From assembly GCA_050012475.1 (NCBI GenBank), contig JBEKHC010000028.1, positions 1-51,531 on the forward strand: a stretch of 51,531 nucleotides of DNA, in the 5' to 3' direction. A program made the translations under genes and the position numbers. Shown here one piece after another: positions 979 through 46,632 of the stretch. The stretch is from Candidatus Velthaea sp. (GTDB lineage Bacteria; Vulcanimicrobiota; Vulcanimicrobiia; Vulcanimicrobiales; Vulcanimicrobiaceae). The first letter of the stretch is position 1; the number at the start of each line of letters is the position of its first letter. The notes under the pieces were generated by a model that was not told the DNA's origin, made no database searches, and saw only the letters and a list, made by a program, of their open reading frames with translations.

Positions 979-2442
979 ATGACCACTCCCATCCGTTTCC
1001 CATCCAGCTTCGCGTGCGCACCGATGCTGATCTTGGCGTTCTTCGCAGCCGCGATGGGAACGGCCGTGGCCGCCGAGCCATCGGCGGCCGCGATCGATGC
1101 GCTCATTCCGAAAAGCATACAAGGCGGGATGAGCCTCTCGATCGTTCATGGTGATCGTGTCGTCTACACCAAAGGCTATGGGTGGCGCGATGAGGGGACG
1201 CCCGACAAATTCATCCCCGAGGACAAGAATTATTACGGCATGCCCTGGCAGCGCAAGGCTGCAGCGCGGGCGCCGGCCGATCCGCGCACGATCTACGCGA
1301 TCGGTTCGGTAACGCGACAGTTTACTGCCGCCGCGATCCTGCTCTTGAGCGAGCGGCACCAACTGCGCCTCGACGATCCCGTGAGCCGTTACGCACCGGA
1401 ATTTTCCGACTCGAATCTCACGCTGCGGATGCTGCTCAACCAGCGTTCGGGCCTGGGCGACTTAAATACGCTTACGTTCTTGCAACGAGTGCGCCCACAG
1501 GCGCGACGGCCGGACGGCTCGTTGGATGTTGCGCGCATCGATCGTGAAATCGCGGCGCTCCCGCGCAGCTTTGTGCCGGGCGCGCGCTTTGAGTACAATA
1601 ACTCGAATTATTTCGTGCTCGGTTCGATCGTCGAGCGCGTGACGCATCAGCCGCTCGGGCAATTTCTGGCAACGAATATCTTTCGCCCGCTGGGCATGGC
1701 GCGGACGGCGTTTGCGACCGACGCCGCCGTCGACGACGTCGCCGTGGGGTATCGCGTCGATGTGAAAAACGCCCTGTATCGCGCCTATCCGTGGGATCTA
1801 GCGTGGCTAGGCGGCGCGGGCGCGATGACGTCGACGGTCGAAGACCTGGGACGCTGGAACCTCGCGTTGATCACGCATCGCGTCCTCCAGCCGACCGCGC
1901 TCGCGGAAATGTGGCACGGAATCGATGCCGGGCATGGGCAGGGTTCGTACGCCATGGGTTGGATCGAGGACGCGCTGGGTTCGCATCGCTACCTGTGGCA
2001 CAACGGGCAAGTGGGCGGCTTTCGCGCCCTCAACGTGATCTTTCCCAGCGACGATCTCGCGTTCGCAATTCTCACCAACAATCAAGACGCGAAGCCGGAA
2101 TATCTGCTGCCCGGCATCGCGTCGCTTTATTTCCCGGTGAGCGGCCTCGATCGCATCTTGCCGCGATCGGGCGAAGTGTTGATCGAAGCATCGCTGGCCG
2201 TGGGTCTGGGCGCGCTTGCCATTGCGATCGTCGCGATCGTAACCCTCAAGCGCTTCATCCTGGCGGGAATCGGGCTCGCCATTCTCGCGCTCTGCGCCGG
2301 GTTCTTTCTGCCGACACTCGTTGGCTTCGGGTGGGCCGGGCTCGCGGCGATAACGCCGACGGCAGTGTATCTTTTGACGGCACGCTTCATGCCGAAACGC
2401 CCGGTGGTGCCGAAGAAAACGATCCGCCGCTCGCGCTTCTAG
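979..2442 (+). CDS. Serine hydrolase of the beta-lactamase class C/AmpH-like family with signal peptide and C-terminal transmembrane helices
   Basis: GSVTRQFTA (SxxK position), FEYNNSNY (YxN), WHNG (HxG); hydrophobic C-terminus; start could be 1024. Confidence 0.85.
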   Translation: MTTPIRFPSSFACAPMLILAFFAAAMGTAVAAEPSAAAIDALIPKSIQGGMSLSIVHGDRVVYTKGYGWRDEGTPDKFIPEDKNYYGMPWQRKAAARAPADPRTIYAIGSVTRQFTAAAILLLSERHQLRLDDPVSRYAPEFSDSNLTLRMLLNQRSGLGDLNTLTFLQRVRPQARRPDGSLDVARIDREIAALPRSFVPGARFEYNNSNYFVLGSIVERVTHQPLGQFLATNIFRPLGMARTAFATDAAVDDVAVGYRVDVKNALYRAYPWDLAWLGGAGAMTSTVEDLGRWNLALITHRVLQPTALAEMWHGIDAGHGQGSYAMGWIEDALGSHRYLWHNGQVGGFRALNVIFPSDDLAFAILTNNQDAKPEYLLPGIASLYFPVSGLDRILPRSGEVLIEASLAVGLGALAIAIVAIVTLKRFILAGIGLAILALCAGFFLPTLVGFGWAGLAAITPTAVYLLTARFMPKRPVVPKKTIRRSRF

Positions 2443-2459
2443 ACGAGCAGAGGAGGTCC

Positions 2460-2852
2460 ATGTCCGTTCAGTTTCTGGGGGTGAGTCCGGTCTTAATCGT
2501 CGATGCGGTCGAACCGACGCGCGCTTTTTTTATCGATCGGTTGGGCTTTGCCGTCGTTGCGGAAGTCGAGCACGCCGGCAAACTCGGCTTCACGATGCTT
2601 CAGCGGCACCAAGTTACGGTCATGGTGCAGTCGGATGCCAGCCTGCGGGCCGACACTGGCGAGAACTTCGTGCCCGGCCCGTATCAAGCGTCCATCTACG
2701 TTTGGATCGACGACGTCGAAGCCTTCGTGCCCGAAGTCGCCGACGCCGATGTCGTGTTGCCGCTGCGGCGCACCGCCTACGGGATGCACGAGATCGGCAT
2801 TCGCGAGCCGGGCGGGAACATCGTGGTTTTCGCATCACGTTTGACGCCGTAA
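2460..2852 (+). CDS. VOC/glyoxalase-bleomycin resistance family protein
   Basis: AGGAGG RBS at 2451 then ATG 2460; motifs FFIDRLGF and YGMHEIGIREPGGNIVVF. Confidence 0.85.
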   Translation: MSVQFLGVSPVLIVDAVEPTRAFFIDRLGFAVVAEVEHAGKLGFTMLQRHQVTVMVQSDASLRADTGENFVPGPYQASIYVWIDDVEAFVPEVADADVVLPLRRTAYGMHEIGIREPGGNIVVFASRLTP

Positions 2853-2942
2853 CCAGCGCGAGCGCTGCGGCCGCGGCTGCGTGAGGCTCGGGGTTCGCGG
2901 GTATCGATGCGAACAACGTCCACGCCCCGAAAGGAAGAAGCG

Positions 2943-3407
2943 ATGGCAGCCCGCACCAGTTCGCAGCCGCGCAAGAAGTCCGCGGCAAAGAAGTCCGCGC
3001 CGAAGAAGACCGCAGCAAAGAAGACTTCCGCACGTACGATCGCGAGCGCGAAAAAGGCACCGCAGAGAAAGGCTCCGGCCGCGAAGAAGAGCGGCGCTCG
3101 TGCGAAGAAGGCCGGCACGGCGAAGAGATCGGTCACGAAAAAGAGCGCTTCGCGCACCGCCGGCGCGGCGAAGAAAACGAGCGCGCGCAAGACGTCGACG
3201 GGTCGGCGGAAGGTCAGCCTCGCCAGCGCAAACGACGTTCGCACCGAGATGCACGAGATGCACGAGGGATCGCTCAAGTCGGGCCGCAGCGGGAAGAAGG
3301 TCACGAATCCGAAGCAGGCGATTGCGATCGGACTTTCGGAGGCGCGGCGCAGCGGGAAGAAAGTGCCGCCGAATCCTAATCGGCCAAGCCGCAAGAAGCC
3401 CAGTTAG
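2943..3407 (+). CDS. Lys/Ala-rich histone H1-like protein with C-terminal DUF6496 domain
   Basis: KKSAAKK-type repeats; MHEMHEGSLKSGRSGKKVTNPKQAIAIGLSEAR; RBS AAGGAAG. Confidence 0.8.
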   Translation: MAARTSSQPRKKSAAKKSAPKKTAAKKTSARTIASAKKAPQRKAPAAKKSGARAKKAGTAKRSVTKKSASRTAGAAKKTSARKTSTGRRKVSLASANDVRTEMHEMHEGSLKSGRSGKKVTNPKQAIAIGLSEARRSGKKVPPNPNRPSRKKPS

Positions 3408-34448: not shown

Positions 34449-35684
34449 GCTCCTACGATAGCTTGGCGGTCCTAGCGTCAATAGGGGATAAAGTCCTAGG
34501 TCCGGCGGCCTATCGATAAGTGTCGTCCCAGGTGTAGATACAAGGCGCTCGGGCGCGCAAAAGCGGGCCTGCAAATGTGGTATGACGGGTGACGCTAACG
34601 CTCGTCGTGTCGGCGTTTCCGGGACGTCCGGCTCGCCCGCGGTTCGCGCGAAGAAAGCACGGATTGTACGCACGAATCGTGCCCCGCTCGACGGCATCCG
34701 AACCGGCAAAAGGCAAGGCCCGAAAGACAACTGAAGGAGTTCCTCACTTGATTCGGGCCGTGGAGCCAAGAGCGCCCGTGGCTTCCCGGAGACGCGATGG
34801 CGTCGGGGCTCGGCGGGCAAACCCAGCGCGGCCGCCCTAACCTTGCGCCCATAGCCGAAGCATCGGATCGGACCTTCCCGTGCTCCCGGGCGCCTAAGCA
34901 GCAAGCGTCGTCTCGATCGATTCGTTCATGGGTGCGGGTAAACGTTCGGCACCGAGGATCGCGCAATCGAGGCATTGCACGAGGTGGCCGAGGCGGGCAT
35001 CGCTGGGCTCATCGTGTGCGATGCGGCAGTCGGGGCAAATGCACGGATATTCCATGCAGTCAACATACGAGGGCCGAGTGCCAAGTGTATGTCACTCTGT
35101 CACGCTCGTTGCGCCGCGTCCGGCCGATGCAGGGCGTGAATCATGCGACGACGCCGCTCGTACGTGATGCCGAACCACAGCGACGGTGCTGGAAACGGAT
35201 CGCCGGCGGGCTTCGGGCATCGGGCCGCGGTGTGAGACCTTTCGGCGCAGCTCAGCGCGGACTGAATGTCCCGCCGGATACCGCTGGCGGCTGGTCCCGC
35301 GGGGAGGTGATGCGCGAAAAGGTCCGCCGGCCGGTACCCCGCGCCGAACGCGACGTCCGCTGGCAGAAGGCGCGTTGAAGTTGGTGCGTTGTGCCCGGAG
35401 TCGTTCTTGATGAACCGAGCGCGGAGACGTGGCGACGTCAGCCGTCAGGTGAAACTCCGCTTGCAGGCAAGAAGAAGAACGCCGTGCAGCGACGATGCGC
35501 GATCGAAGCAGCGATTCGTTCGCACCGCAGGCGTTGACGCGGGGACGGCGCGGGGCGAAATCATCGCACGATAAAGGAACCGGCACGTCCGCGTGCGAGA
35601 ACGGTAACTCGGTGACGAGCGCAACGCGTTCGTGCTGCTTGGCCGGGCAAAACGGCGTGCGGGCCTTTCGGAAAGGACGGACGG

Positions 35685-37331
35685 ATGACGACTCAAGTGA
35701 GTGCAAACGCCAAAGCGGCAGCTTGGACCGCCCTCGAGACCCATTATCAGCAGGCGCGCGCGCTGCAGTTGCGCGATCTCTTCGCGCAGGATCCGGGGCG
35801 CGCGGAACACTTTACGGTCGAGGCGGCGGGCATCTTCTTGGACTATTCCAAGAATCGCATCACCGAGCAGACGTGCAAGCTGCTCGTCGAGCTCGCCGGG
35901 GCCTGCGGATTGCGCGCGCGCATCGACGCGATGTTTCGCGGCGACAAGATCAACCGGTCGGAGAACCGGGCGGTGCTTCACGTTGCGCTGCGCGCTCCGA
36001 GCGGCACGTCGATCGTGGTCGACGGCGAAAACGTGGTCCCGGCGGTCCACGCGGTGCTCGACAAGATGGAAGGTTTCGCGAATAGCGTGCGCAGCGGAGC
36101 ATGGAAAGGTCACACCGGCAAACCCATCGCCAACGTCGTCAACATCGGCATCGGCGGCTCGGACCTGGGTCCGGTGATGGCGTACGAGGCGTTGCGCTAC
36201 TACAGCCGGCGCGACCTGACGTTTCGCTTCGTCTCGAACGTCGATGCGACGGACTTTGCCGAAGCCGTGCGCGACCTCGATCCGGCGCAAACGCTCTTCA
36301 TCGTCGCCTCGAAAACGTTCACCACGCTCGAGACGATGACCAACGCGCACCTCGCGCGACAGTGGTCCGTCGGCGGCTTGGGCGGCGACGAAACAGCGGT
36401 CGCCAAGCATTTCGTGGCCGTCTCCACGAATGCCGAAAAGGTCGCGCAATTCGGCATCGACACCGCGAACATGTTCGGGTTTTGGGACTGGGTCGGCGGC
36501 CGCTATTCGATGGACTCGGCGATCGGCTTGTCGACGATGCTGGCAATCGGACCGCCGAATTTCCGCGCGATGCTCGCCGGTTTTCACGAGATGGACGAGC
36601 ACTTTCGCGGCACCCCGTTCGAGCGCAATTTGCCCGTCCTGCTGGGCCTCTTGGCGGTCTGGTACAACGATTTCTTCGGCGCTCAAACGGTGGCCGTGCT
36701 GCCGTACGAACAATATCTCAAACGGTTTCCCGCCTACCTCCAGCAGCTCACGATGGAGAGCAACGGCAAACACGTCACGCTGAGCGGCGACCCGGTGAGC
36801 TGCGATACCGGCCCGATCTATTGGGGCGAGCCCGGAACCAACGGCCAGCATTCGTTCTATCAGCTGATCCATCAGGGAACGCGCTTGATTCCGTGCGACT
36901 TCATCGCTTTCATCGAATCGCTCAACGATCTGGGCACGAGTCACGACATGCTCTTGGCAAACGTCTTCGCGCAAGGCGAAGCGCTGGCATTCGGCAAGAC
37001 GGCGGCGGAAGTGAAGAGCGAAGGGTCGCCGGATTGGCTCGTGCCGCACCGCGTCTTCGAGGGAAACCGGCCGTCCAATACCCTGCTGCTCGAGCGTCTC
37101 ACCCCGGCTGCGCTCGGCAAGCTCGTCGCACTCTACGAGCACAGCGTCTTCACGCAAGCCGCAATCTGGGACATCGATGCCTTCGACCAGTGGGGAGTCG
37201 AATTAGGAAAAGTGCTCGCCCAACGGATCATCCCGGAACTCGACGGCGCAAAGAAACTTCCGCTTGCACACGATTCGTCGACGAACGCCCTCATCGAGCG
37301 CTATCGCACGCGCAAGCCGCAGCGACATTGA
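35685..37331 (+). CDS. pgi: Glucose-6-phosphate isomerase
   Basis: [44 protein letters not shown]. Confidence 0.98.
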
Positions 37332-37393
37332 ATGCGCAGCGAAGTTGTTGACGGTCACGCTGCGAAGCCCGCGGCGGTGGGTATAGGATCCAG

Positions 37394-37798
37394 ATGAATA
37401 AGTTTCGTTCCACGATCCTGGCTGTTGCGCTGTTCGCGGGCGGAGCCGGGCAACCGGCGCTCGCCCTGGACAATCCGCTGATAGTCGACCTGCAAACAGT
37501 CAAGAATGCGCAATCCGAAGCCTCGGCGACGATCTTCGGTTCGGGATCCAACGTGCTCGTGAATGTCACGGTGCGCGGCGGCGGCGTTCCCAAGGCCGCA
37601 GCGATCACGCTCAACGACGGCAGTTGCGCGAAACCGGGCGACATCGCTTTCGCGCTCTCGGGGCTTTCCGACAATCAGTCGCTCACCAAACTCGATCATT
37701 CGCTCACCGACGTTGCCGGCAAAGCAAAGTCGCTGGTGATCCATCAGACGTCGAACCTGACGTCGCCGGCCTACGCCTGCGGGAAGGTGACCGGCTGA
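37394..37798 (+). CDS. Small secreted protein, CHRD/SOD-like beta-sandwich (tentative)
   Basis: Signal peptide; GSC...IH...ACG pattern. Confidence 0.65.
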   Translation: MNKFRSTILAVALFAGGAGQPALALDNPLIVDLQTVKNAQSEASATIFGSGSNVLVNVTVRGGGVPKAAAITLNDGSCAKPGDIAFALSGLSDNQSLTKLDHSLTDVAGKAKSLVIHQTSNLTSPAYACGKVTG

Positions 37799-37999
37799 GC
37801 GTCACTGCGCAGACGCAGGAATTGCCCGCATTGCTCCCAACCAACATTTTATGGTTGCCGATCGTTCGGCACGGTGTGATTCCCCGCTAGGGGACGTCTT
37901 TTGCCGTCGCGCAGCGATCGCAGAATCTGCGTCGCGCAAACGTGCAAAGTAGAGAATGATTCCATTCGGACGCCCGACGTGGGCCTGAACAGTCGTCGT

Positions 38000-38578
38000 A
38001 TGCGGAACATTGCGGGCCTCGCGTCGGTCGGCGTTCCGTTTGCCATCGTCGTCCACCTCATTGCCGAAGCGGCGGCGCTCGGACACGACGGCCTCGATGT
38101 CGACTTCGTCGCCCGGCACGGCTATTTCGCGGCGCTCGTCTCGGCAGCGGTCTGGTGGTTCGCCGCGACGGTCGGCGTCGGAAAGCCGAGCGCCGAACGC
38201 CGTCGCCGGTGCGCGATCCTGCGCGCCGATCTGGCGGCCCTGCGCGGTTCGCGCGGACTGCTGGTTTTGGGTGTTGCGCAGCTTGCTTTTTTTGGGACTA
38301 CGCAGGCCGTCGAGGGTGTGCCCATCGCATCGGGAGCCGCGGCGTTGGGGTTGGGCATCGCCTTTGCCGGTTCACTGCTCTCGGCGTGCGTGGTCTTTTT
38401 CTTCGGCCGCTCGCTCATCGTCGCCGGTCTCGAAGCCGCCATCGGTTGCCTGCCGTCGCGCTTGGCGCCGGCGTCCATTGCGCGCCGGAAACGCGCGGTC
38501 GTCGGGCCGCGCCGCGCGGCGTCGGCCTTCACGTTGTTCGTTCCGAATCGGCCGCCCCCGTTCGCATCCCAAATCTGA
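38000..38578 (+). CDS. Membrane protein with C-terminal RPPP motif, putative arrest leader for the downstream TonB-dependent receptor
   Basis: About four hydrophobic segments, His residues, basic linker, then VPNRPPPFASQI-stop 33 nt before the receptor start. Confidence 0.75.
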   Translation: MRNIAGLASVGVPFAIVVHLIAEAAALGHDGLDVDFVARHGYFAALVSAAVWWFAATVGVGKPSAERRRRCAILRADLAALRGSRGLLVLGVAQLAFFGTTQAVEGVPIASGAAALGLGIAFAGSLLSACVVFFFGRSLIVAGLEAAIGCLPSRLAPASIARRKRAVVGPRRAASAFTLFVPNRPPPFASQI

Positions 38579-38606
38579 TTACGTAAGCTCGCTTCAGAGA
38601 GGGATG
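38565..38606 (+). promoter_or_regulatory. Hairpin sequestering the TBDT Shine-Dalgarno sequence
   Basis: CATCCC (38565-70)/GGGATG (38601-06) and TCTGA (38574-78)/TCAGA (38594-98) enclose AGAGGGA. Confidence 0.55.
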
Positions 38607-38611
38607 GTCTC

Positions 38612-41074
38612 GTGGGTTTTTTCCGATGCGCACTGCGTGTGGCAGGCGCATGTGCGGCAATTTTTGTGTACGTCGTTTTGGGCCTGGCTGCCGCATCGGC
38701 GCAGTCGGCGGCGGAGCTTTCAGGAACGGTTTCGGCGGGAACGAATCCCGTTGTCGGAGCGGCTGTCACGGTCCAGGGCAGCAATCTCACCTTGCACGCC
38801 AAAACCGATGCGCAAGGAAAATTTCGGTTGGCCGGCGTGCCGATCGGCGCGTACAATGTGAGCGTCGCGAGCCCGTCCGGTGCGGCGTCGTTGCGCGTCG
38901 AGCTTACATCGGCGGGCGCCGCTGTCACGCTGGCGCTCACGCACCTCAAAGAGATCGGGCGCACCTCGGTGACGTCGCGTCCGTCGCTGGGCGGCTCGGG
39001 CACGGATTTGAGTTTGAACAGCGAGCAGCTCAGCCGTTCACCGGCCAGCGGCAGTCTCTCGGGCTTGCTGCTGCAGCTACCCGGTGCGGCACGGGGTGCC
39101 AACGGCGTCGTGCACATCAACGGCGATCACGGCGACATCAACTATATCGTTGACGGCGTTCAGATTCCGCAAGAACTCAACCGCACCATCGGAACGGAGT
39201 TCGACCCGAACGACATCGCGTTCGTCGAAACCCTCCAGGGCGCGTATCCGGCCCAGTACGGCGAGCGTTTTGCATCGGTCATCAACGTCAACACGCGCAA
39301 CGGCAGCGGGGCGCCGGGTTTCGTCACGCAGTTCAACGCCGGCTCGTTCTTTGCCCTCGACGCGGATGTCGCCTATCATGCGAACATCGGCAAGAGCGCC
39401 TTCGTGATCGCGGCACGCAATGAGTCCGGCGATCGGGGACTCGATCCGCCCGATCCGGACTCGCCGCACAACTCGTTCAGCAACGCCAACCAGTTTCTGC
39501 GCTTCACCGCGCCGCGCGGCAACGACTTCGTCAACCTGACGGTGAGCCACGCCTATCAGACCTACCAAATCCCCAACGACATCAACGGCGGGCAGCCCGC
39601 GACGACCGACGACAACGAGACGCAGGACGATCTGTTGGCCGCAATTCAGTATCGGCATCCGCTGGGCGATCACGGCTCGCTCTCGTTCGGACCATCCTTC
39701 AAACGCTCGCAGATTCGCGACACGGGCGATCCGACGAACGATTTCATCTACGGCGAAGCAACCAATCCGGGCGCGCCGACCGATTGCGCGCAGGCGCTGC
39801 TCTCGCACGGCCCGGTCGTCGACGGAATCGTCACCGATCCCGTCGCCAATCCCGCCATCGACGGCGGCAAAGGGTATTCCAACGCGACTTGCGCGTTCTC
39901 GCTGTTCGGCAAACGGACCGCGGTCGACACCGGCGGCAACCTCGACTACGACAACCGCAGCACGCATCACGACGTCCGCTTCGGCGGTCTGTACGATGCG
40001 ACGCACGTCGACAAGACGTATGCCGTCTCGCTGCAGCCGGGCAACTTTCTCGCGCCGATCTTCACACCCCAAACGCCAGGTCTCGCGTACACCGTTGTCG
40101 ACAATTCTCCCAACAGTGGTCACTTGGCGGCCGTCTATCTCCAAGATTCGTGGAAGATGGGCGACGCATACCAGCTCGACTACGGACTGCGCAACGACAC
40201 CTTCGGGGTCTCGTCGGCGCAATTTGCGGCCGGCTACGGGATGACCAGTCCGCGCCTCAAGCTGACGCGCTTTCTCGGCAAGCGGGACAGCGTCTACCTG
40301 TATTACGGCAGGTTCTTCACGCCGTTCTCGCTCGAGAATGTCTCGCCGATCGCGGCGTACACCCTCAATCTGCCGCTGCAGTCGTCCGTCGCGCAGTTCG
40401 ATCTCAAGCCGCAGCGCGACTCGGTCTACGAAGTCGGTACACACATTGGGCTGGGCAAGGGCGATCTTGGCGTTCGGGTCATGCAGAAGAACGCGACGGA
40501 TCTCATCGACGATACGCAAGTCGGCGTCACCGATCTGCATCAGGACATCAACTATTCGCTCGGCCGAATCGCAACCCAGACGGCGTACTACCGGCTGCCG
40601 CTGGCCGGGGCGAGCCGCTTCTATCTCTCGGCCAGCCACACGTACTCGGTCAACAAAGGTTGCGAAACGCAGCTCTTGGCCCCGTGTTTCGGTCAGACCA
40701 GCGATTGGACGCCGGCGGATCACGACCAGCGCGTCGACGTCACGTCCGGGATCATCGCCAACGACCGCAGCGGCGGGTGGATCGCGGTCGACGGTGAGTA
40801 CGGCAGCGGCTTGTCGTCGGCGCAGAATCCGACCGGCGGCATCACCTGCGCCGGGTTCAACGAGGCCGTTGATATCGGCGGTCCGTGTAAGCGCACGCCG
40901 CATCTTACCTTCGACGTGCAGAAGGGCATCGCGATGGGACCGGGTGTGGCGCTGACGCTCAAGATGCAAAACATCTTCAACGATCTGTACGAAGTGACGT
41001 ACCTCAACGCGCAAGGGAACCACTACGCCCCGCCGCGCACGTTCGAGGTGGGCTTGCGCTTCAATACGAAATAG
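38612..41074 (+). CDS. TonB-dependent receptor with N-terminal carboxypeptidase-regulatory-like domain
   Basis: Signal peptide; TDAQGKFRLAGVPIGAY; plug motifs YIVDGV and PAQYG; barrel-type motifs YGLRND, SPRL, NIFN...PRTFEVGLRF. Confidence 0.9.
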   Translation: MGFFRCALRVAGACAAIFVYVVLGLAAASAQSAAELSGTVSAGTNPVVGAAVTVQGSNLTLHAKTDAQGKFRLAGVPIGAYNVSVASPSGAASLRVELTSAGAAVTLALTHLKEIGRTSVTSRPSLGGSGTDLSLNSEQLSRSPASGSLSGLLLQLPGAARGANGVVHINGDHGDINYIVDGVQIPQELNRTIGTEFDPNDIAFVETLQGAYPAQYGERFASVINVNTRNGSGAPGFVTQFNAGSFFALDADVAYHANIGKSAFVIAARNESGDRGLDPPDPDSPHNSFSNANQFLRFTAPRGNDFVNLTVSHAYQTYQIPNDINGGQPATTDDNETQDDLLAAIQYRHPLGDHGSLSFGPSFKRSQIRDTGDPTNDFIYGEATNPGAPTDCAQALLSHGPVVDGIVTDPVANPAIDGGKGYSNATCAFSLFGKRTAVDTGGNLDYDNRSTHHDVRFGGLYDATHVDKTYAVSLQPGNFLAPIFTPQTPGLAYTVVDNSPNSGHLAAVYLQDSWKMGDAYQLDYGLRNDTFGVSSAQFAAGYGMTSPRLKLTRFLGKRDSVYLYYGRFFTPFSLENVSPIAAYTLNLPLQSSVAQFDLKPQRDSVYEVGTHIGLGKGDLGVRVMQKNATDLIDDTQVGVTDLHQDINYSLGRIATQTAYYRLPLAGASRFYLSASHTYSVNKGCETQLLAPCFGQTSDWTPADHDQRVDVTSGIIANDRSGGWIAVDGEYGSGLSSAQNPTGGITCAGFNEAVDIGGPCKRTPHLTFDVQKGIAMGPGVALTLKMQNIFNDLYEVTYLNAQGNHYAPPRTFEVGLRFNTK

Positions 41075-41199
41075 CGGAGCTTCGTCGAGCTCCCGGGGCG
41101 CCGGCCAATTCGCGCCGGCGCCGGAGCGGGCGTTAAATGCGCGTTAGATTGGGCGGTTCGGGCATTCGTTTGTGAACGCGCTGCGCTATGATTGAGGTC

Positions 41200-42681
41200 A
41201 TGGATGACGCCCTTCACCCGTTTCGGCCGCAGGGCGCATTACCGGCGGCGCCGCTGGCCGCATACCGCGGCCCCTGGAATGCGCGTCTTGCCGCGCACCT
41301 CCTGCGACGGGCGGGCTTCGGCGGCGCGCCGGCAGAGATTGCGCGGTTCGCGCAGGGGTCGATGCATGATGCCGTGACATCGCTGGTACTCTTTCCGTCG
41401 GCGGCGAATCTCCCGAGCGGTCCGGACGATCTGCCTTCTGACGGCGAACTTGCCGCGCGCATCTTGGCTGTGCGCGCTGGGGAAGAGCCCGGTGCGGCGC
41501 CCGATGCGAACGCCGTGGCGATGCGCGAACAGCTCAGGGCACTGGTGCGCCGGGCAATCATCTCGCTGCAGCTTTGGTGGATCGACCGCATGATCGCGAC
41601 GCCTGCACCGCTGCAAGAAAAGATGACGCTGTTCTGGCACGGTCATTTCACGACGGCGGCGGTGCAGAAAGGTGTTTCGCCGGCCGCGACCCTCGCCCAA
41701 AATGCCCTGTTCCGGTCGTTCGCGCTGGGAAACGTGCGCGAATTAACGCAGCGCGTTGCCGTGGATCCCGCCATGCTGCGCTACCTCGACAACATTCACA
41801 ACGAAGCAGCGCACCCCAACGAGAATTTTGCGCGCGAGCTCATCGAACTGTACACCCTGGGCATCGGCAACTATACCGAGAGCGACGTGCGCGAAGCCGC
41901 GCGCGCCTGGACCGGCTTGCGCATTCGCCGAGCCACCGGCGAAGTATACCTCAACGAGCGGCTCCACGACGCCGGATCGAAAACGTTTCTGGGGCGCACG
42001 GGAAACTTCGGCGGTTCGGAAATCATCGACATCATCTTCCAACAGCCTGCCGCGGCACGCTACTTTGCCACAAAGCTGTTGACGTTCTTCGTGTATGCCG
42101 ACCCCGAACCGGAACTCGTCGATGCCGTGGCCGGCCTTCTGCGCACGCACGATTTCGCGCTCGCGCCGGTCATGACTGCGCTCTTGTCGTCGAACGTCTT
42201 CTACTCGGCGCGGGCGTACCGGGCGCTGGTCAAGAGCCCGGTCGAGTTCGTCGTCGGCAGCTACCGGCTCTTCGGCGTTCCGGCGGCGCAGCCCGAAGCG
42301 CTGGGAGCGCTGCGGCGGATGACACAGGTCTTGTTTTATCCGCCCAATGTCAAAGGTTGGCCGGGCGGCAGCGCATGGCTCAATACGTCCACGGTGCTGG
42401 CGCGCGAGAATTTCGCCAATGCGCTCATGACCGCGAACGTCGTCAACGATTCGAGTTGGCTGCTCGCGGCCGGCCCCGGCAACGTGGAGCGGGCTGCTGC
42501 CGCGATCGTCGACGCCATCGTTCAGAACGACGTTTCGACGGCAGCCCGCAGCCGGCTCGAAGCCTACTTAGCCGGAACCGATAGCGCGGCGCTGGGCGCG
42601 CTCTCGGCCGAGAACTTCGACCAGCGGATGCGCGGCGGCGCGTATCTGACGATGGCGATGCCCGCCTACCAACTCGCGTGA
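41200..42681 (+). CDS. DUF1800 family protein
   Basis: HLLRRAGFG, EKMTLFWHGHF, PAMLRYLDN, NENFARELIELYTLG, KSPVE, PPNVKGW; start could be 41188. Confidence 0.92.
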   Translation: MDDALHPFRPQGALPAAPLAAYRGPWNARLAAHLLRRAGFGGAPAEIARFAQGSMHDAVTSLVLFPSAANLPSGPDDLPSDGELAARILAVRAGEEPGAAPDANAVAMREQLRALVRRAIISLQLWWIDRMIATPAPLQEKMTLFWHGHFTTAAVQKGVSPAATLAQNALFRSFALGNVRELTQRVAVDPAMLRYLDNIHNEAAHPNENFARELIELYTLGIGNYTESDVREAARAWTGLRIRRATGEVYLNERLHDAGSKTFLGRTGNFGGSEIIDIIFQQPAAARYFATKLLTFFVYADPEPELVDAVAGLLRTHDFALAPVMTALLSSNVFYSARAYRALVKSPVEFVVGSYRLFGVPAAQPEALGALRRMTQVLFYPPNVKGWPGGSAWLNTSTVLARENFANALMTANVVNDSSWLLAAGPGNVERAAAAIVDAIVQNDVSTAARSRLEAYLAGTDSAALGALSAENFDQRMRGGAYLTMAMPAYQLA

Positions 42682-42694
42682 GAAAGTGCGACGC

Positions 42695-43921
42695 ATGATG
42701 AAGCGCTCCCGGTTTCTGCTCGGCTCGTGTGCGGGATTGAGCCTGGCCGCGAAGGCCGACAACCTGTTTGCGCGGTCGCTGGCGAGCCCGGCGCTGCCCG
42801 ATGCGTCCGCCGGCGCAGCGGATCGGGTGCTTGTCGTCGTCAACCTGCAAGGCGGGAACGATGGACTCAACACCGTCGTGCCGTATGCTCAGCCGGCGTA
42901 TTACCGCTATCGGCCGACGCTCGGCGTGGCGCCGAACGACGTGCTGCGCATCGACGCAGCAATCGGCTTGAACCCGGCGCTGGCGCCGCTCAAAGCGTTG
43001 TACGATCGGGGGTTGGTCGCCATCGTTCAGGGCGCAGGGTACCCCAATCCCGATCATTCGCATTTTCGGTCGACCGAGATTTGGCAAACGGCCGTGCCGG
43101 ACTCGTATGCGGCGACGGGCTGGCTCGGCCGGTATCTCGACACGGCAGGTGTTCCCGAGCAGAACCTCTTCAACGCGGTTGCGCTGGCACCGGTGCTGCC
43201 CGAAGCGCTCATCGCGCGCAGCGTGGATGTGCCGGCGATCGATTCGTTACGCGGCTACGGGCTTGCCAGCGATCGCAATCGCAGTCAGCGCGCGGCGTTC
43301 GCCGGCGTTGCAAGCGACACGCGCTTGCCGTTTACCTCGCCATTTTTGGCCTCGGTCGCGCAGATCGAGGACCAGGCCGAACGGGGCGCGGCGGAGCTTC
43401 CGAAGCTCGTCGGCGGTTATACGACGACGGCCCAATACCCCGCCACGCCCTTGGGCCGCAGCCTGGCGCTCGCGGCGCAAATCATCGGCAGCCAATTAGG
43501 CACGCGCGTGCTGTACGTGCAGCACGGTTCGTTCGATACGCACGTCTCGCAAAAAGTCACCCAGGATCGTCTGCTGCGCGAGCTTGCCGACGGGCTCAGC
43601 GCGTTTTACAACGATCTCGCCGCTCACGGCAACGACCGCCGCACGCTGACGATGACGTTTTCGGAGTTCGGCCGCCGCGTGGCGGAAAACGCGAACCGCG
43701 GAACCGATCATGGCGAAGCCGCGCCGATGTTTCTGATCGGCGGCAGCGTGCGCGGCGGCGTGTACGGGGCGCATCCGTCGCTCGACCGGCTCGACAACGG
43801 CGATGCCGTCTTCACCGTCGACTTCCGCAGCGTCTATACGACGGTGGTGGAGAAGTGGTTCGGCCGCCCGGCGACGAGCGTCATCAGCGGTTCCTTTCCG
43901 TCGCTCGCCATGCTCGCGTAA
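42695..43921 (+). CDS. DUF1501 family protein with Tat-like leader
   Basis: GGNDGLN, SHFRS, FDTH, FSEFGRR, GTDHG, DFRSVY. Confidence 0.92.
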   Translation: MMKRSRFLLGSCAGLSLAAKADNLFARSLASPALPDASAGAADRVLVVVNLQGGNDGLNTVVPYAQPAYYRYRPTLGVAPNDVLRIDAAIGLNPALAPLKALYDRGLVAIVQGAGYPNPDHSHFRSTEIWQTAVPDSYAATGWLGRYLDTAGVPEQNLFNAVALAPVLPEALIARSVDVPAIDSLRGYGLASDRNRSQRAAFAGVASDTRLPFTSPFLASVAQIEDQAERGAAELPKLVGGYTTTAQYPATPLGRSLALAAQIIGSQLGTRVLYVQHGSFDTHVSQKVTQDRLLRELADGLSAFYNDLAAHGNDRRTLTMTFSEFGRRVAENANRGTDHGEAAPMFLIGGSVRGGVYGAHPSLDRLDNGDAVFTVDFRSVYTTVVEKWFGRPATSVISGSFPSLAMLA

Positions 43922-44158
43922 GGGCACGGGTTTCGATTTCTTCGTGCTCGCGGACACGGCAACGTTCGCCCTGGGGCATGCGTCGATCGCGACCGCCCGC
44001 CGCGATCTGTCCGCCCGACCCCGCTAAATCCGGCGGCGATTATCTTGCCGTCTGACGAAGAGAAGAAGCAGCCAGTTCTGCCGCTTTTGCCAATCGTCGT
44101 CGCGTGGATCGCGACCCGGCGGCTTGCGGCTGACACCATGCACCTGAGGTAAACACCG

Positions 44159-44608
44159 ATGCCCGAAGAGATCGTCCCACTCATCAGCTCCAGCGTAGCG
44201 GGCCCGCTCGGCATCCGGCACTTGCCGCGCCTGTGGCTCAAGATCTCGCTTTACGCCTCCGGCCGGCTGCCGGAGGGCTACCGGCACGGCGCCGGTGGGT
44301 TCGACGAGCTGCTCACCGGCAGCCTCGGCATCGACAACGCGCGCTTCGTCGCCTATATCGAGAACGAGAAGCCCAGCTATCTGCAGCTCGAAGCATGGGT
44401 AAACGAGCACGCGCGCAACCTCACGCCGGAGTCGGTGGCGGCGTTCAACCACAAGATCCTCACGCGCGACATGAACGCCGAGATGGCCGCCGAGCGGCGC
44501 GAACGCTTCGGCATCGCCGACCCCACGTTCGCGCATGGGGTCAGCCTCAACGATCTCGACGACTGGGACGAGGCACACCGCCGGCTCACGAACGTCGAGG
44601 GCCCGTAG
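44159..44608 (+). CDS. DUF5069-like protein
   Basis: GPLGIRHLPRLWLK...GRLPEGY...LNDLDDW; RBS GAGGT. Confidence 0.75.
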   Translation: MPEEIVPLISSSVAGPLGIRHLPRLWLKISLYASGRLPEGYRHGAGGFDELLTGSLGIDNARFVAYIENEKPSYLQLEAWVNEHARNLTPESVAAFNHKILTRDMNAEMAAERRERFGIADPTFAHGVSLNDLDDWDEAHRRLTNVEGP

Positions 44609-44742
44609 CTGCAAGAGGTCCCAACCGCTTGCGGCGAACAGTGGCGCCCGCCGCAGACAACCTTGCTGCCCGGCTTGATGTCAAAGTTCGAGGCCATTGC
44701 GCTGCACCCTAAACGCCTTCGGAAGCCACAGACGCTTCCCGT

Positions 44743-46632
44743 TCAGGGCGGCGACGGATTCGTTTTCGGGCGCGGATTGAAATCGGCCGGGATAAAATTT
44801 TCGATGTGCATCGCCCGGTCGACCGGAACGATGCCGATCGCCGCGCAGCCGTATCCGGTCTGCTGAGGCAGCGTTCGCACCAGCGCATCAGGCACGATGG
44901 CGAGCCGGGCCGGCAGCGGCGGCGCGGTGCCGCGCAGCCGGTTGGGGTCGAAGGCCGAGAGCAGGTCGCTGATGCGCGGATCGGCATCGACGGGGCCGAA
45001 GTCGCCGGGGCCGAACAGCGAGCGCGCGTGGTCGGCAGCGCGTTTTTCGTCCGGCAGCGCTTCGAGCGGGGTCAACCCGAAGACCGTATCGACCAGCTTG
45101 ACGACCGAAGCGTGGTCGCCGATGTCGTGCACGATCGCGTGCGTCTTGGCAAACGGAGAAATGACGATGAGCGGCACGCGCGGTCCGTCGCTTTGAGGTG
45201 CTTCACCGGGGATCTGATGCCGGATGCGCGGCACGACGTGGTCGTAGTCGCCCTCGGAATCATCCCAAGTGAGCACGATCGCGCTTTGCTTCCAGTACGG
45301 GCTGCGCGCGATTCGATTGACGAGATCGGCGACCATCGCCTCACTGATCTGACTGTCGGAATACGCCGGATGATCGTCGTCGCCGACGAAGCGCGTCTGC
45401 ACCGCGGTGTCGGGATCGGCCGGCTTGAGCCCGAGCAGATTCCGATACCCGCCCTTGAGGTAGAAGACACCCTCCGGCGGCAGGGCGCGTCGATCGATCG
45501 CGCGCCGGAAATCGTCGAGACCGTGGAGATGCGCGGACATCGCCGGGTTGTTCGCGACGTAGCCGAAATATTGCGGGCCGTTGTGATGGGTGACGTATCC
45601 GGCATGCCGGCCATCGGCGGTCTCCGGTCCGTCGTCGGGATTGCTCGGTTCGCGGTCGTAGCCTTCCTCGTACCACGCCCAAGGTGTCGCGGCGGCGCCG
45701 GTTTGCGAGATTGCCCCGACGTCGTCACCGACGTCGCGCAGATCGCCCGCGCCGTCGCGGTCGCTCTTCACCGTGGCCGCGAGCTGTCCGCCCATGAGCG
45801 TCAGCGGCAAGGATGCGAACGTGAGATTGCGCTGCGTGCCGTAGCCGGGGAAATCGGCGGGATTTACCGGCATCTTGCCGCTGGCCGTCGTGTCCGACGG
45901 CGAACCCCAAAACGGATCCGAGTCGTCAAGTACCGGAACGCCGGCACCGGCATCACCGTTGGCGCCGCCGGCGGCTTCGTCGGGGTGCAGGATGCGTTGG
46001 GTAATGCCGGTTTGGGCTGCGATGATCGAAAGGTTGCCCGGCGTCGATGGCCCGGTCATGAGTTGATAGACGTGATCGAAGAGGGCGAAGCGATTGGCAT
46101 ATTGCCACAGAAACGGCACCGTGTCGCAGTCTTCGTACGCCATCGTGAGTTCGCCGAATTGCTTGGCCTGCAGCGATGGGTTGCCCGTCGGAGAGAAACG
46201 CCGTTCCTCGGTGAGTGCGAACCGGTCCATCTGCGGAATGCCGTCGACGATATCCATTTTCGTGACCAGCCCGGTGTGCGAGTGATCGACGTCGTCGGTA
46301 TCCGACGCATATTGCACCGGGCCGATCCGAAATGGATGGATCGCCAGCGTGGTGCCGTCGGTGTCGAGCAGCGGTTGGGCGAACCCGGCGGGTAAGGCCG
46401 GAGCATGCGAAAAGAAGCCTTCGGCACCGGGAAACGTGCCGAAGTACGAATCGAACGAGCGGTTCTCTTGGTAGATGACGAAAACGTATTTGATTTTTTG
46501 GCGCACGAGTGCGCTGAGCGATTCGCCGTTCGACGCACGTGCCTGGGGCGCAAAAGCGGACCCCGCCGAGAGCACCGTCAGGACGAGCGCGGCGAGCGCT
46601 GGCGCGATCTTGCTGCTGGACGGACGAAACAC
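44743..46632 (-). CDS. Secreted phosphoesterase (phospholipase C/acid phosphatase AcpA family)
   Basis: IKYVFVIYQENRSFDSYFG, GPSTPGN, DDHP, WDDSEGDYDHV, GPRVPLIVISPFAK. Confidence 0.9.
   Translation of the reverse strand: MFRPSSSKIAPALAALVLTVLSAGSAFAPQARASNGESLSALVRQKIKYVFVIYQENRSFDSYFGTFPGAEGFFSHAPALPAGFAQPLLDTDGTTLAIHPFRIGPVQYASDTDDVDHSHTGLVTKMDIVDGIPQMDRFALTEERRFSPTGNPSLQAKQFGELTMAYEDCDTVPFLWQYANRFALFDHVYQLMTGPSTPGNLSIIAAQTGITQRILHPDEAAGGANGDAGAGVPVLDDSDPFWGSPSDTTASGKMPVNPADFPGYGTQRNLTFASLPLTLMGGQLAATVKSDRDGAGDLRDVGDDVGAISQTGAAATPWAWYEEGYDREPSNPDDGPETADGRHAGYVTHHNGPQYFGYVANNPAMSAHLHGLDDFRRAIDRRALPPEGVFYLKGGYRNLLGLKPADPDTAVQTRFVGDDDHPAYSDSQISEAMVADLVNRIARSPYWKQSAIVLTWDDSEGDYDHVVPRIRHQIPGEAPQSDGPRVPLIVISPFAKTHAIVHDIGDHASVVKLVDTVFGLTPLEALPDEKRAADHARSLFGPGDFGPVDADPRISDLLSAFDPNRLRGTAPPLPARLAIVPDALVRTLPQQTGYGCAAIGIVPVDRAMHIENFIPADFNPRPKTNPSPP

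Follow-up and report, generated by a model that had tools for sequence, protein, structure and literature searches.

A four-helix membrane leader ending in RPPP as a putative metal-responsive arrest attenuator of a TonB-dependent receptor in Vulcanimicrobiota

INTRODUCTION

Metal-sensing arrest peptides so far comprise two tested cases, CruR and CutF, and a few predicted ones. CruR (Bp2923; DUF2946/PF11162) of Bordetella pertussis is the product of an upstream open reading frame (ORF) preceding bfrG, which encodes a TonB-dependent receptor (TBDT). It is a poorly structured protein of 145 amino acids (aa) that combines CxxC with a C-terminal R-x-P-P motif (RAPP) at constrained spacing, a 162-bp spacer, and Rho-dependent termination, and its ligand is proposed to lift the arrest and so shut down uptake (PMC9426467). 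Arrest by CruR has been demonstrated (PMC12992588). In Rhodobacter capsulatus, metal in the periplasm is sensed by the nascent chain of CutF, a secreted DUF2946 protein with CxxxC and a C-terminal PPP stall encoded ahead of cutO; a stem-loop hides the downstream Shine-Dalgarno (SD) sequence, and copper induces both the stall and a detoxifying enzyme (bioRxiv 2022.11.11.516240; 2025.02.05.636593). Here, we analyze a leader ORF ending in RPPP that precedes a TBDT gene in a 51,531-nt stretch of Candidatus Velthaea sp. (contig JBEKHC010000028.1; hereafter, the window).

Other described systems resemble this locus in part. Among the RAPP/RGPP arrest peptides of Streptomyces lividans with four transmembrane (TM) helices, SLIV_18480 has four predicted TM segments, conserved His residues as the proposed metal site, a C-terminal RxPP with demonstrated arrest, and a metal-related downstream gene; compared by its description only, it is larger (arrest Arg at 273), has a predicted His3Met copper site, and belongs to a monoderm host, with no TBDT (PMC12992588). 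In SecM, MifM, VemP, and ApdA/ApdP, which control Sec/YidC genes and report translocation without a ligand site, the stalled ribosome likewise opens an SD-sequestering stem-loop, the core is Arg-x-Pro-Pro, and pulling releases the stall (PMC10987492). The screen of Fujiwara covered RAPP/RGPP proteins only, and the TBDT leaders that it found are nearly all signal-peptide proteins (PMC12992588). The filter of the CutF-like survey (<150 aa plus signal peptide) leaves out the family described here. A literature search weighted to openly accessible papers found no paper on this family, and the terms RPPP, Eremiobacter, and Vulcanimicrob are absent from the main text and the searched supplements (file 10 excepted) of PMC12992588, whose source data may hold a few RAPP members under accession numbers.

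RESULTS

An earlier note on this DNA, made from the sequence alone, had proposed a ribosome-arrest attenuator at this locus. The ORF, the RPPP codons, the GTG start, the TBDT, and the hairpin all lie where it had placed them (Table 1). Across the family, we found conservation of the leader, adjacency to a receptor gene, and a covarying hairpin tied to RPPP. On balance, the leader is probably a cis-acting ribosome-arrest translational attenuator, with a metal releasing the stall and thus turning the receptor off. We hold with high confidence that the hairpin is gated by a stall, and sensing of a metal appears likely; should a metal be the signal, it quite probably switches the receptor off.

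Table 1 Features of the leader-receptor unit in the window
Feature	Positions	Strand	Basis or remark
Leader ORF	38000..38578	+	192 aa, ends NRPPP-FASQI-stop; four predicted TM helices
H19-x3-E23 on TM1, candidate metal ligands	38054..38068	+	Conservation
H40, outer end of TM2, candidate ligand	38117..38119	+	Conservation
E105-G-x-P, outer end of TM3, candidate ligand	38312..38323	+	Conservation
TM4 and linker	38324..38548	+	E105-R184 distance held
RPPP, putative arrest motif	38549..38560	+	Conservation; stall register by analogy to CruR
Anti-SD arm, within the leader's final codons	38565..38570	+	
Inner helix (38574-38578/38594-38598) around loop	38574..38598	+	Loop C/U-rich, G-poor in homologs
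Receptor SD-like sequence (38598-38604) and hairpin 3' arm	38598..38606	+	
TBDT, GTG start	38612..41074	+	820 aa; CarboxypepD_reg, Plug, barrel
Small hairpin just past receptor stop	41076..41093		Terminator-like score on minus strand only

Homolog searches yielded 50 homologs and 68 representatives, one of the latter a false repeat-protein match, and conservation was counted over 183 nonredundant family members of 25 to 68% identity. The top-conserved columns are P186, P187, R184, H19, E105, H40, G106, P185, and E23. The motif reads RPPP in 171 members and RAPP in 5, with none in 7, which answers the call for a conservation check on RPPP; 3 to 8 residues follow it in most members. The leader shares with RAPP-like arrest peptides a conserved RxPP placed C-terminally in a membrane or secreted protein of <300 aa. 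H19 is kept in 170/171 sequences, E23 in 160/170 (H in 8), H40 in 172/174, and E105 in 178/180, and all four candidate ligands (E23 or H) coexist in 165 of the 169 complete members. These residues stand from the ligand list of the earlier note, whereas the His of its GHDG (H29) was rejected as a metal ligand, being H in only 15 of 150 members. Likewise, CxxC is absent from this leader, as claimed, but follows E105-G106 directly in 26 of the 183 members. An in-frame CTG at 37985 matches the ATG/TTG position of close homologs when upstream sequences are compared and may be the true leader start.

Of 401 genomes from the phylum Vulcanimicrobiota (Eremiobacterota), 117 matched the family profile, all of them within two families, a tally that includes six genomes flagged as unpublished and used in no other count. 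Thirteen of the 117 match in the C-terminal third only and probably hold other RxPP leaders instead. Named relatives in a metagenome scan were nearly all Vulcanimicrobiota/Eremiobacterota, the scan being biased toward the close clade by the alignment used (A1). No Pfam or NCBIfam family matches the leader. For PF11162 (DUF2946), there was no match to the leader at an E value of ≤1, to any of 52 members of alignment A2 at ≤0.1, or anywhere in the source genome (G000; 94% complete). ESM Atlas returned unnamed Vulcanimicrobiota clusters only, the nearest named cluster (DUF6412 at 0.82) being just a lead. The best Foldseek match in the PDB was weak (E value of 1.6), and the best VIA-align match (Z of 6.7; root mean square deviation of 5.2; 116 aligned) fell among unrelated helical proteins.

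The claim of about four TM segments is borne out by family hydropathy and by an AlphaFold2 (AF2) model (predicted local distance difference test [pLDDT] score of 85) with helices at residues 4 to 27, 42 to 58, 64 to 80, 84 to 105, and 114 to 148 and a low-confidence tail. The predicted TM helices span approximately residues 4 to 27, 42 to 58, 84 to 105, and 114 to 140, accompanied by a basic cytoplasmic helix (64 to 80) and a basic tail. Basic residues average 6.1 per sequence in loop 2 and 5.6 in the tail, and acidic ones lie mainly in loops 1 and 3; by the positive-inside rule, this distribution places H19, E23, H40, and E105 all on the predicted periplasmic face, together with CxxC in the 26 members that carry it. 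The four residues would make one site. E105 and R184 lie 78 ± 1.6 residues apart across 174 sequences, even though conservation within the core is lowest at residues 138 to 170. By analogy with the CxxC-RAPP spacing of CruR, this segment may act as a length-constrained tether (PMC9426467).

Of the 106 leader hits, with redundant loci counted, 95 have a homolog of this receptor starting ≤600 nt from the motif, in agreement with the expected adjacency to TBDTs. The 11 hits without one comprise 6 at contig ends plus L050, L101, L102, L103, and L104. The leader-receptor unit usually consists of these two genes only, with varying flanks. At L050 (after position 1741), leader and hairpin are intact, and what begins downstream as a receptor-like signal sequence leads into an unrelated protein that we take, from its appearance, to have an M16 peptidase fold. 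L101 and L102 are distant RPPP leaders (E values of 4e-9 and 4e-8); the former, in which Cys replaces the His set, precedes an RND efflux and MntP cluster, and the latter a cytochrome c-multicopper oxidase pair. L095 (G376:C8) holds two tandem leader-receptor units, the second leader overlapping the end of the first receptor.

The hairpin in the leader-receptor region (intergenic gap here of 33 nt; genome GC of 64%) pairs CATCCC of the anti-SD arm with GGGATG (38601 to 38606) and, further in, TCTGA with TCAGA. It is both the minimum-free-energy and the centroid structure, at -16 kcal/mol for 38563 to 38615. Against shuffles, z is -1.6 for this segment and about -2.5 for two longer stretches; stability alone is modestly beyond chance, and it is conservation that makes the hairpin real. 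From the 106 leader hits with the motif, we retained successively 95 with a receptor, 76 nonidentical, 75 with an in-frame start, and 61 dereplicated loci, and 334 gene pairs from a crude codon-model caller (3,947 genes) served as controls. In the 61 loci, duplexes between the first 22 nt past RPPP and the cognate SD region average -14.2 kcal/mol, against -9.1 kcal/mol for swapped partners and -7.6 to -8.8 kcal/mol for upstream windows. This covariation, which had been put forward as a check, was matched by 0 of 10,000 permutations, a count that overstates the case because related loci are not independent. The cognate duplex also beats the nearest-relative swap in 50/61 loci; the SD sequence differs between subclades, and the anti-SD arm changes alongside. 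Spacers vary from 44 to 113 nt across loci, some with inserted hairpins. In a sequence-only alignment of 30 short-spacer loci, 77% of the cells of this structure are paired (69% when shuffled) and 25 are double changes, against 11.5 in shuffles (0/500), with the best value at slide 0.

A ribosome footprint reaches about +15 from the P-site codon. By analogy with CruR, the stall is expected with Pro186 in the P site and Pro187 in the A site, and the probability of pairing with the SD sequence is maximal +4 to +11 nt past the last Pro codon, i.e., at the edge of a ribosome so placed. Such a ribosome (footprint to ∼38569) covers the outer anti-SD helix but not the inner TCTGA arm, so that the idea that it covers the 5' arm holds for the outer helix alone. 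In the model, masking this footprint lowers the opening energy of the receptor ribosome-binding site (RBS) here from 17.4 to 7.3 kcal/mol. The mean drop is 5.4 kcal/mol in the family versus 0.2 kcal/mol in the 334 controls, and an effect of at least 2 kcal/mol occurs in 52/61 loci versus 44/334 controls; the family mean drops at -1/0 codons. A further trait shared with RAPP-like arrest peptides is a co-oriented target whose SD-sequestering stem a stalled ribosome could reach.

The position of the anti-SD arm tracks RPPP (standard deviation of 5 nt), not the leader stop (28 nt). Where leader tails extend to 33 to 123 nt (8 loci), the anti-SD still sits at +7 to +12. L003, L004, L013, L014, L032, L038, L041, and L046 have lost the leader stop with the hairpin intact, and the stop-less ORFs run 36 to 40 codons beyond RPPP, across the receptor SD and start in another frame. 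In 5/61 loci, the leader reads past the receptor start and ends ∼65 nt into the receptor gene, an argument against termination coupling. Termination-coupled reinitiation was rejected as a general mechanism on these two grounds, the tracking of RPPP and the read-through.

Published mutants indicate how RPPP could perform as an arrest core. ApdP A132P, which creates RPPP, gave 2.4 units versus 1.9 for the wild type in Bacillus subtilis and was intermediate in Escherichia coli; ApdA A121P was partly permissive, and random screens recovered RxPP with G, A, S, or P at x. A second-position Pro is thus permissive for arrest in the published mutants, nearly fully in ApdP in B. subtilis and partially otherwise (PMC12992588). 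Without EF-P, RPPP stalled ribosomes more strongly than the other XPPP motifs (PMC4176338). In the source genome, RPPP occurs in 13 of the 3,947 crude gene calls, versus 65 for APPP, and the leader is the only C-terminal case. Arrest driven by RPPP is plausible at this locus by analogy.

Clues to the ligand come from the receptor and from gene context. Twelve of the 20 His residues of the receptor are conserved at ≥85% in 34 aligned sequences, six of them invariantly, which suggests a metal-ion transporter. The receptor has no relative of solved structure, and its single-sequence AF2 model (pLDDT of 29.5) is unusable. Among 41 loci with long flanks, an Nramp gene occurs in 11 and a ZnuA-like gene in 3, most Nramp cases sharing one YmdB-linked syntenic block and hence not amounting to 11 independent events. 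Fifteen of 77 leaders, versus 1 of 1,540 shuffles, have a Fur-family-type palindrome directly ahead of their start (L061, L064 to L067, L069 to L073, L077, L088, L092, L098, and L105); they belong to a subclade of mostly CxxC leaders. The same palindrome stands ahead of a Fur-family gene plus a Zn/Mn-type (cluster A-I) ABC operon in 4 of 5 genomes searched, and its presence at both leaders and a metal ABC operon fits a receptor that is on when the cell is starved. Loci with the palindrome also include L111, L113, L131, and L132. In the alignment of the ABC binding protein, Glu replaces the first His of what we take to be the usual ligand positions of cluster A-I, and NCBIfam cannot separate Zn from Mn for this protein. 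One subclade of the leaders adjoins PCuAC, so that the metal may vary between branches. Context across most of the family points to Zn, Mn, or Fe more than to Cu; of the metals first named as plausible (Ni, Co, Zn, and Cu), Zn, joined by Mn and Fe, is better backed, and the other three less so.

DISCUSSION

In the proposed mechanism, the four helices of the nascent leader would enter the inner membrane during a ribosome stall at RPPP. The stalled ribosome would keep the anti-SD arm single-stranded and the receptor RBS open, so that the TBDT is made; geometry and covariation are observed for this step, and its effect is what we infer from them. The periplasm-facing H19/E23/H40/E105 could then bind a divalent metal (Zn, Mn, or Fe being the likeliest), whereupon the bundle would compact or complete its insertion, pull on the fixed-length tether, and free the stall. 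The ribosome would terminate six codons later, the hairpin would refold, and receptor translation would stop, a shut-off possibly reinforced by Rho acting on the C-rich spacer.

Beyond the nonindependence of related loci and of the Nramp cases, several observations weigh against this mechanism. Modeled footprint effects remain below 2 kcal/mol in 9/61 loci, including a subclade (L005, L076, L080, L086, and L106) in which the first arm pairs upstream of the SD, and RNAalifold recovered just three core pairs from the MAFFT alignment A3. EF-P, which rescued RPPP stalling in the NlpD context (PMC4176338), is encoded in the source genome. The neighbors of this locus itself, PGI and DUF1800/DUF1501, are not metal genes, and a look-alike of a Fur-type box at 37949 was rejected (score of 2.2 versus a threshold of 12).

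The stall might instead monitor a nonmetal cue, such as membrane insertion capacity (as in MifM/VemP), periplasmic pH via His/Glu protonation, or the supply of EF-P or Pro-tRNA. A polytopic nascent chain with a fixed tether, the soil and peat metagenomes that are the best DNA sources for the locus, and the dependence of PPP stalls on EF-P (PMC4176338) would suit such a cue. We nevertheless rate it as unlikely: the regulated gene is a His-rich TBDT and no Sec/YidC gene, the conserved set consists of two His and two Glu residues with CxxC added in a subclade, and metal-homeostasis neighbors recur.

An inverse polarity, with the ligand causing or prolonging the stall against EF-P and the receptor induced by its own ligand, has its precedent in CutF, where a PPP stall operates in that direction together with EF-P and an anti-SD stem-loop (bioRxiv 2025.02.05.636593). 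The genome has EF-P, and the distant leaders L101 and L102 precede efflux/MntP and cytochrome c/multicopper oxidase genes, respectively. This polarity is rather improbable here, given that the target is an importer, that one subclade has, ahead of the unit, a repressor-type Fur box shared with a metal ABC importer, and that L101 lacks H19 and H40.

That the leader is primarily a functional partner of the receptor, e.g., an inner-membrane metal chaperone or permease, with the hairpin merely coupling translation through termination, would agree with its well-folded four-helix core with conserved ligands and with the correlated identities of leader and receptor (Mantel r of 0.39; 57 loci). We consider this quite improbable in view of an anti-SD arm that follows RPPP instead of the stop, ORFs that end within the receptor gene in 5 loci, and an invariant RPPP in a low-confidence tail with no other obvious use. 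A dual role as switch and partner is possible. Finally, control mainly by Rho-dependent transcription termination with a secondary hairpin, for which CruR (PMC9426467) and an excess of C over G in the spacer minus the arms (60/61 loci versus 175/334 controls) could be invoked, is very improbable, as the spacer is only 44 to 60 nt in 30/61 loci, SD/anti-SD covariation reveals selection on pairing itself, and G-poor loops may simply avoid competition with the anti-SD.

The arrest attenuator proposed here would, by analogy, work like CruR in target and polarity, like CutF in periplasmic sensing, PPP, and anti-SD, and like SLIV_18480 in its four TM helices and His site. It differs from CruR by its four TM helices, the His2Glu2 set, RPPP, the short gap, and the covarying anti-SD hairpin. 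It is also unlike DUF2946-type proteins, with 192 aa (not <150), four hydrophobic helices (not a single export signal), and a pLDDT of 85 (not poorly structured). The earlier note's description of a distinct system is right in that the leader fails the DUF2946 tests, but a four-TM His RAPP peptide (SLIV_18480) and a copper switch built on a proline stall and an anti-SD (CutF) were already published. What the family adds is a natural, invariant RPPP outside the published RAPP/RGPP screen, an anti-SD that covaries with unusual clarity and keeps its place relative to the stall codon, and a candidate metal site that is compact, embedded in the membrane, and attached to a tether of constant length. 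The last of these would allow a clean test of whether ligand-driven folding within the membrane can pull ribosomes off a stall. The family also offers a functional way into a group of receptors that lack annotation, in a soil phylum that is widespread and for the most part uncultured.

The source genome contains further leaders, among them members of at least two other four-helix RxPP families that differ in their conserved acidic and His residues. A paralog (L129; G000:C1:7088-7666, minus strand) ends in YRPPP, keeps H19/E23/H40/E105 with GCP after E105, and precedes a receptor paralog that is 52% identical; a PCuAC copper-chaperone gene lies convergently downstream, as in L106. In its subclade, the first RNA arm pairs upstream of the SD, and the switch may differ. 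An N-terminal fragment of a third copy (G000:C190:263-448) breaks off past TM2. A second four-helix leader family (120 homologs; RAPP/RGPP end; invariant E28, D42, E113, E116, and H142) is represented by L127 (G000:C148:6038-6697, minus strand) and C109:1333-1986 (minus strand); the C148 copy, equipped with an anti-SD hairpin of its own, lies ahead of a receptor-like gene. A third family (L126; G000:C35:5372-5989, minus strand), with an RGPP/RAPP end and conserved H15, D19, D32, H36, D105, and D118, also stands before a receptor-like gene. By hhalign, this third family scores 93.6% to the C148 family and 73% to the RPPP family, and the C148 family 73% to the RPPP family (weak profile similarity), values that are suggestive only, as hydrophobic composition and a common motif can inflate them.

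Tentatively, and with more doubt than confidence, one may picture a phylum-wide superfamily of four-helix sensor leaders that replaces two-component/anti-sigma signaling for TonB receptors. One scaffold with a periplasmic pocket would have its ligands rewritten by branch (His2Glu2; the same plus CxxC; His/Asp-rich with RGPP; carboxylate-rich with RAPP), ligand-driven folding of the helix bundle would exert force on the RxPP stall, and RPPP would be a naturally selected, tunable arrest core. Should these families form a single superfamily, membrane sensor leaders would be a general means of receptor control in the phylum.

No sigma-70-like promoter was scored upstream of the leader. A scan of 35000 to 45000 at Rfam gathering thresholds gave no match, and thus no known riboswitch there. 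Among the best-supported rows of four DNA runs, the RPPP codons and hairpin arms show no substitution or indel, and no RNA data set carrying the locus was among the matches listed. Elsewhere in the genome (G000:C8, about 1950 to 3030), a strong palindrome lies between a Fur-family gene and a divergently oriented peroxiredoxin-like gene, an arrangement that is probably of the PerR type. Between PGI and the leader, the window encodes a 134-aa exported protein without a Pfam match (37394 to 37798); the close loci L001 and L002 lack it, and the leader there comes right after PGI.

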